In this document: positions 13,226 to 15,474 of the stretch, piece by piece | Layout of the letters: each line of letters opens with the position of its first letter | Position numbering within the stretch: the stretch's first letter is position 1 | Assembly (NCBI GenBank): GCA_964014485.1 | Contig: CAXHAT010000124.1 | Location: 1-24,011, forward strand | DNA from: an uncultured Deferribacteres bacterium | GTDB lineage: Bacteria; Zhuqueibacterota; Zhuqueibacteria; Zhuqueibacterales; Geothermadaptataceae | Length of the DNA stretch: 24,011 nt | Direction of reading: 5' to 3' | Translations under genes and position numbers: made by a program | Notes under the pieces: generated by a model | What the model was told of the DNA's origin: nothing | What the model saw: the letters and a program-made list of their open reading frames with translations, nothing else | The model's database searches: none

Positions 13226-13325
13226 TCATAACGGTCGCGCATGTATTGCCCAAAACTGCTAGATGAAGGTGTCAGACCCAAAGCAGCGACAGCTGTTTTG
13301 GGTCAATACGATGCAGCTGTTAGAT
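13226..13325 (-). other. attC site 1 (100 bp)
   Basis: Minus strand: R'' ATCTAAC, spacer AGCTG, CAT[C]GTATTG[A]CCCAAAAC ... GTTTTGGGCAATACATG, spacer CGCGACC, R' GTTATGA. The two unpaired bases read G and T on the bottom strand, as in canonical attC. Confidence 0.88.
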
Positions 13326-13376
13326 CAAAATAACTCAAAATCTATATATCACATCCATATTTCACGATTGTACTTA

Positions 13377-14276
13377 CTAATCGCGCCTAGTAAATGAAAT
13401 CAACTCCATTTCTTTGACCAGCATGTCTTCTCCAGAAGTTCTGGTACCGGGATAGATCTTCTTGAATTTGACTACTCCAATATCTTTTACTATCCAAAAC
13501 GTCTCTCTAGGTGGTCCTCCGACTATGATACCTTCATTGGTACTGTTGACTGCAAACGAGACTTCTAAAGTATCCTTAGCTGTCGATGAATCCAGAAAGC
13601 GAAATAAGTAAGGCTGCTGCCAAAACGCTGAGTCAAATCTATACGGTCTTCTGGGTGGGCCACTAGTCTTGAGCGCCGTGCTCGAATCTTGTTCAATAAA
13701 GAACAGTAGTGTGTCGATCCCGCTAGGTGTCTCCAGGATGTCTTCAATTGTATATATGAATTCATCAAGCTCTTGTTCTTCTTCAATAACATTGAGGGTT
13801 CTAATACCTTCGAATTGTGAATATCTTGGATATTCCCCATAGCGAGTTTCTACGTACTTGTACGTCCACGACATACCCTTAAACAACGGGAAATAGTCCC
13901 CAAGCTTTTCAAGTGCAAACCTCGCCTGAGTGTTAGAGTGGATTGAGAGCACTGTATCTATGAGTCTCAAGCCGGGCTTAGATACCTTAAAACGATAGTC
14001 ACCCTCGAGTAGGTTGTCGAACATGAATTCACCGCTACCATTTGTTCTTGTCGAGTCAACTTGGAAGCGGAAGACCTTGCTGTCGGTTATTTCTCTTTCT
14101 AAAGCGACATTGACTCTCGGGATTCTTGAAACGGGTGTAGTCTCATTAGTGACAACGACTCCCTGAACTTGATAATATCTTGGTGATGACAGCTCTTGAG
14201 GGGAATTGACACTTTCGATACATGATGAAAGGATCAGTGCTGAGTTAACCGAAAAACAGAGAGTCCAGTATTTCAT
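13377..14276 (-). CDS. Cassette-borne predicted lipoprotein: carboxypeptidase-regulatory-like beta-sandwich plus a C-terminal domain of unknown function
   Basis: Lipobox-like LILSSC; TRTNGSGEFMFDNLLEGDYRFKVSKPG; C-terminal DYFPLFKGMSWTY...FWIVKDIGVVK; AGGA SD; visibly AT-richer than the core genes. Confidence 0.75.
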   Translation of the reverse strand: MKYWTLCFSVNSALILSSCIESVNSPQELSSPRYYQVQGVVVTNETTPVSRIPRVNVALEREITDSKVFRFQVDSTRTNGSGEFMFDNLLEGDYRFKVSKPGLRLIDTVLSIHSNTQARFALEKLGDYFPLFKGMSWTYKYVETRYGEYPRYSQFEGIRTLNVIEEEQELDEFIYTIEDILETPSGIDTLLFFIEQDSSTALKTSGPPRRPYRFDSAFWQQPYLFRFLDSSTAKDTLEVSFAVNSTNEGIIVGGPPRETFWIVKDIGVVKFKKIYPGTRTSGEDMLVKEMELISFTRRD

Positions 14277-14304
14277 AGTGTTATATCCTGATGTAGACCT
14301 TGTG

Positions 14305-14437
14305 ATCTAACGACCTCATGAGCGGCTGGCCGAATAATCAGTTTCCCTTTCAATTTCACCGAAAAAGCAAGAAATCCAGAGCAATTTTTGATTTTTCACG
14401 CCGCTGAGGCCAGTCCGACTCAATGAGCATGTTAGGC
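14305..14437 (-). other. attC site 2 (133 bp)
   Basis: Minus strand: R'' GCCTAAC, ATG, CTCAT[T]GAG[T]CGG[A]CTGGCC ... GGCCAGCCGCTCATGAG, GTC, R' GTTAGAT. All three extra bases are on the R'' arm. Confidence 0.88.
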
Positions 14438-14530
14438 GAAAAAAAGCTGGCTACCTTCGTTTTTGAAGATTCTCTCGGACACAAAGCGATCAGAACAGCA
14501 ATGCGAACTCGGTTCCGGGGGACTTTCAAT

Positions 14531-14894
14531 CTATTCCTTTGGTTTTCCATACAAAAGAACAGGAATCTTGATCTTCAGCAATGCTTCCGGATTGGGGAAA
14601 GAATCCGTACCTTCCGGATCAGGTTTTCTTGCGAAGATATTATTTGCCGCTAAGGAACTGAAATTTCCAAGCAGTAAGCCAACTTCTTCACTATTAATTG
14701 TTTTTAGAATACTCTATTTATTGTGTTCGATAAACAAAACTCGCGCAGAAATTTCTCCGTCTTGGGTTTGAAGATATATGGTTTCCCCACGGGTGACAAA
14801 ACCGTGGCTTACCAACCCCCTAAATACAATCCCTCTGCCCATAATGACGAACACCTCAGTTGAAAAGAATTTAAATGCCCTTATTCTGCATCAT
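14531..14894 (-). pseudogene. Decayed stand-alone EF-Tu domain II-like protein
   Basis: Manual translation: AFKFFSTEVFVIMGRGIVFRGLVSHGFVTRGETIYLQTQDGEISARVLFIEHNK*SILKTINSEEVGLLLGNF...KPKE*. Internal TAG at 14714-14716; the ATGs at 14894/14891 are one base out of frame. Confidence 0.72.
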
Positions 14895-14928
14895 GATTGG
14901 AAATGGTAAGAGATTGTTGCGGAGCCGT

Positions 14929-15303
14929 TTAGCGTGGTAAAGGTCCCAGATGCTCACAGAGCAAGAGCCATTGCATATTTTCCCGCACGAGCACCGACGT
15001 GCCGCGCCCCGAGCCGGAAGCAGGCTTTCCGTTGATGAGCCCGGACCAGGAAAAAATGTATGTCATGACTGCGTAAGAGGCCGTGTTTGTGACCCAATGG
15101 ACCTCGCTCAGGGCATATTTTTCATCTTGGATGAGAGCAAAGGTTTTGCGAAAGGCGGCTTCAACTTGCGTTTTGCCGTGATAAGTGCCTTCAGTGAAGG
15201 TGGCGACACACCCGGGGTGAATGAGCGGGGCGATGACCTCCCAGTCTTGGGATGCCAGTGCCTGTTCGTAAGCAGGAATGAAATCTTGTGGAGTAGTGAT
15301 CAT
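14929..15303 (-). CDS. Cassette-borne NTF2-like / SnoaL / DUF4440 protein
   Basis: 124 aa; FIPAYEQALASQDWEVIAPLIHP, YHGKTQVEAAF, GSGRGTSVLVRENMQWLLLCEHL; starts 40 nt after R' of attC3. Confidence 0.85.
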   Translation of the reverse strand: MITTPQDFIPAYEQALASQDWEVIAPLIHPGCVATFTEGTYHGKTQVEAAFRKTFALIQDEKYALSEVHWVTNTASYAVMTYIFSWSGLINGKPASGSGRGTSVLVRENMQWLLLCEHLGPLPR

Positions 15304-15343
15304 AGACCTTGGAAAAAAAGAATATTTTGATTAGGGAGACTCA

Positions 15344-15474
15344 GCCTAACGTTAAGGATTATATTCGCCGTTACGCCGCAAGCTAACCACAAGCCGTTGT
15401 GGTTTCCCCGCAAGCTGTTTTTTCATTGAATGTGGTTACAAGGCAGCGCAATGGCGGATATGATCAAGTTGAAC
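15344..15474 (-). other. attC site 3 (damaged R'' end)
   Basis: Minus strand: GAT[C]ATATCCGCCATTGCGCTGC..TAACCACA ... TGTGGTTA..GCGGCGTAACGGCGAATAT-AAT, spacer CCTTAAC, R' GTTAGGC. The nearest RYYYAAC (GTTCAAC) is only 2 nt from the L'' box. Confidence 0.65.

Follow-up and report, generated by a model that had tools for sequence, protein, structure and literature searches.

A two-cassette integron array probably headed by the remnant of a cassette-mimicking transposon in a Zhuqueibacterota genome

Organization of the locus

The stretch of DNA studied here (the window, 24,011 nucleotides) is contig C124 (CAXHAT010000124.1) of the genome of an uncultured bacterium of the Zhuqueibacterota (G000; 8.4 Mb, 465 contigs, 97% complete). 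Between an epimerase gene on the plus strand and an ion transport gene on the minus strand, with pyrD and ftsH nearby, lie two gene cassettes (A and B) and three imperfect palindromes (S1 to S3), arranged on the minus strand in the order S1 (15474-15344), cassette B, S2 (14437-14305), cassette A and S3 (13325-13226). A first inspection of the letters alone (the original prediction) took the whole for an array of cassettes of the integron integrase (IntI) type, without an integrase and with three attC recombination sites. Here, we propose an integron array of two cassettes that has at its head the stump of a transposon mimicking a cassette, a reading that we consider fairly probable; the anatomy listed below is read with high confidence.

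12262..13155, plus strand: host gene beside the array and convergent with it, NAD-dependent epimerase/dehydratase
13226..13325, minus strand: S3, predicted attC site of 100 bp, with 5-nt and 7-nt spacers and two extra bases on the R''-L'' arm; crossover 13232/13231
13232..14310, minus strand: cassette A, 1079 bp, its start the complement of the S3 R'' box over 9 nt
13377..14276, minus strand: gene of cassette A, 299 aa, orphan that resembles a lipoprotein and has a carboxypeptidase-regulatory-like beta-sandwich at its N-terminus
14305..14437, minus strand: S2, predicted attC site of 133 bp, with 5-nt spacers and three extra bases on the R''-L'' arm; crossover 14311/14310
14311..15349, minus strand: cassette B, 1039 bp, its start the complement of the S2 R'' box over 7 nt
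14438..14928, minus strand: rest of cassette B, about 490 bp, interrupted by stops in each of the three minus-strand frames
14929..15303, minus strand: gene of cassette B, 124 aa, SnoaL/DUF4440 (NTF2-like) family (PF14534 45.1 bits, PF13474 37.4 bits)
15344..15467, plus strand (bottom strand of the array): terminal hairpin of S1, unbulged 15-bp stem; crossover 15350/15349
15344..15632, minus strand: putative remnant of the 3' end of an element with a tyrosine recombinase and an IS91-type Y2 transposase, about 290 bp, non-coding
15468..15514, minus strand: conserved subterminal element motif whose last letters, GTTCAAC, are the R'' box of the original prediction
15650..16552, minus strand: flanking host gene, ion transport protein (channel), co-oriented, its stop about 18 bp before the element remnant

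The two cassettes and their attC sites

The palindromes measure 100 bp (S3, 13226-13325), 133 bp (S2, 14305-14437) and 131 bp (S1, 15344-15474), in agreement with the 100-133 bp first given for them, and the plus-strand folding that had been proposed as a check gave z-scores of -3.4, -3.1 and -2.3 for S3, S2 and S1, respectively, against 300 dinucleotide shuffles each. On the minus strand, the corresponding values were -2.9, -2.7 and -1.1. In all three sites, the better score was found on the plus strand, which is the bottom strand of this minus-strand array.

According to the accessible part of PMC12614218, attC sites are characterized by R and L boxes, extrahelical bases, an unpaired central spacer, a variable terminal structure and folding of the bottom strand, and S2 and S3 display all of these features. 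Each carries an RYYYAAC R'' box and a GTT R' box and folds on the bottom strand into a hairpin whose R''-L'' arm has a 5-nt spacer as well as extrahelical bases. In each of them, R'' complements the start of its own cassette, at the positions originally reported, and the junctions first given (14310-13232 and 15349-14311) are correct; identity over 7 nt between two random GTTR sites has a probability of 0.013. The last R' box, GTTATGA, departs from GTTRRRY. The earlier spacer counts of 7 nt (S3) and 5 nt (S2) are correct, and the 7-nt spacer is also present in copies of the S3 family found elsewhere. The claim of extra bases confined to the R'' arm is correct for S2 and S3 and fails for S1, whose stem is unbulged.

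A covariance model of attC was built from 11 other attC sites of the host genome, with the window sites and the S3 family excluded. In its alignment, the arms were paired in 94.4% of the cells and two-sided changes were present at 11 of 21 pairs. The search with an attC model that the original prediction had called for recovered S3 (37.8 bits, E 2.2e-7) and, weakly, S2, and returned only a 33-nt fragment of S1 (9-10 bits). Genome-wide, 17 distinct sites were listed, 10 of them from the training set. A first heuristic scan for attC sites, which also returned repeats resembling repetitive extragenic palindromes (REP), was curated by eye, and no Rfam family matched 11700-16800 at E<=1.

S3 belongs to a family with three copies of 91-95% identity on contigs C44 and C129. 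In public contigs from one study, its summed depth is about 144 compared with about 6 for unique DNA, with varied neighbours attached. Since the family has several copies in the host genome and many in the same metagenome, the earlier argument that the cassettes came from different sources because their sites differ is weak.

Judging from these features, A and B are IntI-type cassettes closed by the attC sites S3 and S2, both predicted to be IntI substrates as folded single strands. The locus is an attC cluster that lacks an integron integrase (CALIN), with two attC sites and no integrase nearby, and as such of a known kind. To this extent the IntI-type array of the original prediction stands; S1 as its third attC site does not.

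S1 as the end of a transposable element

S1 resembles attC in its R-like boxes, its bottom-strand hairpin and its variable loop. It differs in having no extrahelical base and in its spacing, as the stem begins 2 nt past AAC and ends 6 nt short of G|TT (the bar marking the crossover), compared with spacers of 5 and 5-7 nt in attC. No upstream cassette start complementary to its R'' box was found nearer than position 20990, 5.5 kb upstream and inside another gene. The host genome contains a second, 75% identical stump (contig C3, 33532-33821), which directly precedes a cassette with a matching attC, and the similarity between the two runs for about 160 bp beyond the supposed R'' box and stops at G|TT.

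A second covariance model was derived from 17 element ends of other genomes (described below), with the host genome excluded and the search motif trimmed off. It matched S1 over its full length on the plus strand (42.1 bits, E 6.3e-8), its sole match in the whole host genome, and listed neither S2 nor S3 at E<=5 in the window. Because S1 has no extrahelical bases and a shifted stem, is missed by the attC model and is matched by the element-end model, we conclude from sequence comparison that S1, together with about 160 bp upstream, is the 3' end of a tyrosine-recombinase/IS91 element and not a third attC site. The window holds a remnant, not a member, of the IS91-type elements: the Y2 HUH transposase gene and the recombinase gene are absent, and the conserved 3' end (motif and hairpin) is shared with intact copies.

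The exact 5'-end pattern of the element is unmatched in the host genome, the best candidate (about 15710) being at chance level. In each of the two copies, a candidate decayed 5' end is located some 200 bp upstream of the motif, with 10 of 15 nt matched, a score attained by 0.37% of background positions. The junction between S1 and cassette B is covered without differences by a 153-nt contig from a second sample of the study that supplied the public contigs, and the exact 23-nt motif had no match in metagenome contigs.

Other identities were considered for this segment and rejected. A profile of S1 gave no match to the attI regions behind intI in relatives, which speaks against an attI site. 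A decayed HU/IHF gene was dismissed as the four PF00216 matches of the genome all lie elsewhere. A start of the element inside the 3' end of the channel gene was likewise discarded, the longer channel tail reading as a coiled-coil extension and the candidate 5' end being at chance level; this coiled-coil-like C-terminal tail (15650-15730) exceeds that of the 11 homologues extending to the C-terminus by about 15-28 aa.

At the second stump (L122, C3:33532-35850), the cassette encodes a 405-aa pentapeptide-repeat protein with a weak TIR-like match. Beyond this gene are two small open reading frames on the opposite strand, which we take to resemble a toxin-antitoxin pair of the BrnT/BrnA type.

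Intact elements in other genomes

A 28-base motif from the upstream part of the stump was searched in a species-level genome collection and was found at 41 loci in Firmicutes, Acidobacteriota, Brocadia, Chloroflexi, WOR-3 and others (two of these, L110 and L111, overlap, and L094 is a contig also seen as L074). Y2-transposase sequence was present upstream on the same strand at 21 of the 36 loci with more than 100 bp upstream; the other five loci have less than 100 bp. Intact elements are 2.5-2.6 kb long. In order, they have a 5' end that opens with G|TTGAAC, a tyrosine recombinase of about 280 aa, a Y2 transposase of about 400 aa and the subterminal motif, and they finish with an unbulged hairpin and a last G. 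Their beginning and their end are built like those of a cassette. In an intact copy, the two genes match PF00589 and PF13495, and PF04986 and PF14319, respectively; the recombinase is 34% identical to the IntI of a relative and lacks about 39 aa of the IntI insertion. The 5' end was located within 3 kb at 11 loci, opening with G|TTGAAC (G|TAGAAC in one), and its first 15 nt are an inverted match of the last 15 nt of the subterminal motif.

Past the motif, every intact end has 1-3 nt before the first arm of an unbulged stem; a loop whose length varies separates this arm from its partner, which is followed by 5-7 nt and usually by GTT. Across the 17 ends, the stem is paired in 96.1% of the cells with two-sided changes at 10 of 15 pairs, a level reached by none of 500 shuffles in a test that is inflated by relatedness among the rows.

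Twenty-six of the 41 ends could be tested for an attC cognate to the junction; of the 15 others, 2 are cut by contig ends, 2 have no stem, 9 lack a junction GTT with A, G or C after it and 2 have less than 1 kb downstream. In nine of the 26, a hairpin whose R'' complements the junction was found within about 2.9 kb, where 0.67 would be expected from the heptamers of the other loci. By eye, these nine comprise six canonical attC sites, one unbulged site, one second element end facing back (L097) and one doubtful case. In parallel, 30 loci with the 5' pattern in the host's class were inspected and sorted by eye: the 5' end directly follows AT-rich repeats of the attI type or intI at L171, L176, L182 and L194 and an attC hairpin at L167, L170 and L187, and the remaining loci lie after unremarkable DNA or are chance matches. 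The cognate hairpins after the ends and the 5' ends behind attI, intI or attC indicate that the element sits at the G|TT of attI, attC or secondary sites and enters, as its sequence context suggests, as a cassette does.

Some loci show further arrangements. In Brocadia, miniature elements of about 550-560 bp have both ends and little or no coding sequence (L086, L102, L115). Two element ends flank a single gene and point towards each other at L097 (about 2090-2950) and at L110. The two junctions of L097 share the sequence G|TTATAC, as would be expected had one element entered at R' forwards and the other at R'' backwards. At L118, L120 and L110, the last 7-15 nt of the element end are tandemly duplicated just before G|TT, possibly as traces of imprecise recombination.

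Origin of the array and alternative explanations

The anatomy of these elements and the known single-stranded DNA route of attC (accessible part of PMC12614218) suggest how such an element may move. It would leave as a single-stranded circle made by its own HUH transposase. The joined ends would fold on the bottom strand into an att-like hairpin in which the 5' end pairs with the subterminal motif, followed by a 2x6 internal loop and an inner stem, and a tyrosine recombinase, probably the element's own, would insert the circle at G|TT like a cassette. At the present locus, a full element would have landed at G|TT in front of cassette B, and a later deletion would have taken the element genes and upstream DNA (attI, earlier cassettes or the host G|TT junction), leaving 290 bp beside the channel gene. 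Expression of the cassettes would rely on read-through from the channel gene; a promoter scan of the stump gave no promoter-like site on the minus strand. We find this history of full-element insertion followed by deletion rather probable. Two arrays of the genome are headed by an element stump, and others by relics of a reverse-type integron platform followed by G|TT (C44, C45, C260) or by plain sites, for example a stop codon (C23).

Several observations weigh against the proposed anatomy or history. S2 is matched by the attC model over its full length and in the canonical register with only 11.9 bits (E 0.45), and the hairpin of the C3 copy is decayed and unmatched by the end model. In 21 distinct stems, wobbles favour the bottom strand by 20 to 3, with 12 of the 20 in one column. 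No cognate attC was found within about 2.9 kb of 17 of the 26 testable ends, and only six of the nine positive ones are canonical. The comparison of the epimerase-channel interval suggested by the original prediction yielded no empty site, the relatives being of family level only and too distant (flanking proteins 24-34% identical), and the order of events was for this reason not observed; the best metagenomic homologues of the channel protein, at 34-51% identity, are not close relatives either. Finally, the similarity between the two stumps of the genome has nearly the same 5' limit in both, which two random deletions would not predict; in the window, this limit is set by the channel gene. 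The similar limit, with stumps of about equal length, favours an alternative in which a short non-autonomous or 5'-truncated copy seeded the array behind the channel gene, its G|TT serving as a surrogate attI into which a then-active IntI or the element's recombinase inserted cassette A and then B. In keeping with this possibility, both stumps head arrays, a position occupied in others (C44, C45, C260) by relics of attI together with stubs of intI or AT-rich repeats, and short copies with both ends do exist in Brocadia. Five genomes chosen for having 3' ends contain 21 of them and a single exact 5' end, a count biased by this very choice. An unselected sample of 125 genomes of the class gave 33 matches to the 5' pattern, spread over 25 genomes, and 10 to the 3' pattern, spread over 8; only 4 of these 10 looked like true ends, and the two exact patterns may differ in sensitivity. 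The lack of an excess of solo 3' ends in this sample favours a full element and its deletion, and one-ended transposition as the source of solo 3' ends was rejected since the class-wide counts do not support it. The break points of truncated copies have no evident common motif, and the candidate decayed 5' ends described above also argue against seeding by a short copy, which we regard as possible and rather unlikely.

A plain CALIN of three sites, with S1 as an unusual attC, would account for the RYYYAAC and GTTRRRY boxes 131 bp apart, the bottom-strand hairpin and the cassette start at G|TT. It would leave unexplained the missing extrahelical base, the 2/6 spacing and the lack of a complementary cassette start nearby, as well as a similarity to the C3 copy and to transposase-linked loci that continues 40-160 bp past the R'' box; it is largely refuted by the two covariance models and appears very improbable. 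One might also regard the palindromes as terminators or REP-like repeats with boxes that are complementary by chance, as the genome is rich in unrelated palindromic repeats that pass the first heuristic scan. This is hardly credible in view of the two matched cassette boundaries, the same rule at other arrays of the genome, the covarying attC arms and the S3-type sites joined to different neighbours in metagenome contigs, and it is refuted for S3 by the attC model and for S1 by the element-end model. A more far-reaching idea is that the unbulged 2/6 hairpin belongs to a second att class, which the element's recombinase would read, with element ends acting as cassette entry points even when solo. 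At L084, L097 and L098, neighbouring cassette sites share an unbulged 1-2/5-6 geometry, and no IntI was found at E<=1e-40 in five genomes searched, including those of these three loci, two of whose assemblies are only about 2 Mb. Unlike these, six sites beside other element ends are canonical, and the canonical attC of both window cassettes limits the idea, which we consider unlikely.

Integrase and mobility in the host genome

On the contig of the window, no match to PF00589 or TIGR02249 was found. The search of the genome for IntI that had been recommended brought up one near-complete intI gene (C46:7291-6310, minus strand), which carries a frameshift, an internal stop and a leucine at the position of the catalytic tyrosine and is, by its sequence, a pseudogene. 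It is followed by co-oriented genes, among which the scans detected no attC. Among 40 relatives, 19 have a match above the TIGR02249 cut-off. In the same way, the assembly contains no PF04986 match for a Y2 transposase, and an intact intI with attI at the head of the array, as in a complete integron, was not found. No excision joint or circle was seen in three contig sets of one study, contigs being prone to drop rare variants so that absence is not shown. With the sole near-complete intI reduced to a pseudogene and no Y2 transposase detected, the array is probably immobile now, unless an integrase arrives or is unassembled. In principle, the original prediction correctly stated that current mobility would need an IntI in trans; with the only near-complete intI dead, such mobility is improbable at present.

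About nine relics of a reverse-type integron platform are scattered over the genome; the body of intI is deleted in them, leaving its promoter and 5' stub, AT-rich repeats or both (C44:3880-4400, C45:24960-25409, C46:42450-43160, C323:790-1040, C6:10380-10545, C260:~5000-5120, C61:~26190-26450, C43:~19390-19480 and C32:~37750-37910). Several end in an attI-like G|TT followed by a foreign gene, and they may have spread as deleted mini-platforms. A conserved open reading frame of about 110 aa follows intI in the reverse-type integrons of relatives (L048, L047, L045, L065) and has left a remnant at C46:42681-43004.

Cassette contents and surrounding repeats

The protein of cassette A scores 31.3 bits against PF13620, just below the cut-off, and its homologues amount to a single fragment of 99% identity. 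Its gene has a GC content at third codon positions of 0.44, compared with 0.54-0.64 in five other genes of the window. A search of 124 further genomes of the class gave no homologue of the cassette B protein at E<=1e-15, and the rest of this cassette is possibly a decayed second gene. Elsewhere in the window, a degenerate 8-nt tandem repeat (16610-16660) has very many relatives genome-wide, often at contig ends, and the gap between ftsH and the epimerase gene contains a multi-copy intergenic repeat (about 12067-12122) with high depth and loose ends in public contigs.

Comparison with known systems

Among 2961 CALINs, 1362 have only two cassettes, and their origin through insertion by IntI at GWT genomic sites has been proposed (10.1101/2022.09.11.507474, in its accessible part); small CALINs may also arise through loss of intI (PMC8618304, likewise). 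The present locus resembles such CALINs, and single attC sites lacking an integron integrase, arising by insertion at attG in being a small attC cluster without a nearby intI, and its right boundary, G|TT, fits GWT. It is unlike them in its head, which is a transposon end and neither attI, attC nor a plain genomic site. In reverse integrons, for instance that of Treponema denticola, intI is co-oriented with the cassettes (PMC4909258, accessible part). Relatives of the host have intI followed downstream by AT-rich repeats and a G|TT site, and several relics of this arrangement exist in the host genome, with none at the locus of the window.

IS91-family elements with a tyrosine recombinase presumably include those named ISAzo26 and ISWz1 in ISfinder. 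Their association with integron-like tyrosine recombinases has been published, and the IS91-associated recombinases lack the IntI insertion (10.1101/542381, accessible part). The intact relatives of the stump share with them the gene pair and the recombinase missing about 39 aa of this insertion; the accessible part of that report is silent on cassette-like ends or insertion at the G|TT of att sites. The window differs from such elements in lacking both genes and the 5' end. The accessible parts of PMC11023631 and PMC8876359 contain nothing on this element, and no published description of a cassette-like element end was found, only the gene association, in a search that was thin on subscription papers and on ISfinder/TnCentral.

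Other mobile elements, such as IS1111-attC elements and group IIC-attC introns, exploit cassette recombination sites. They use different enzymes and are not known to have a cassette-like att end of their own.

Significance

The CALIN itself is ordinary and probably dead. Its head suggests that some apparent first attC sites of integrase-less arrays are transposon ends, which changes how the origins of CALINs are counted. The element end also offers a testable substrate for the unexplained tyrosine recombinase of IS91-type elements, a close relative of IntI. If this recombinase acts on an unbulged single-stranded hairpin at G|TT, it would provide a model for the origin of the IntI/attC chemistry and a route for cassette capture without IntI. 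Should the second class of att site prove true, these elements would form an integron-like system that does without IntI and can found arrays at housekeeping loci.

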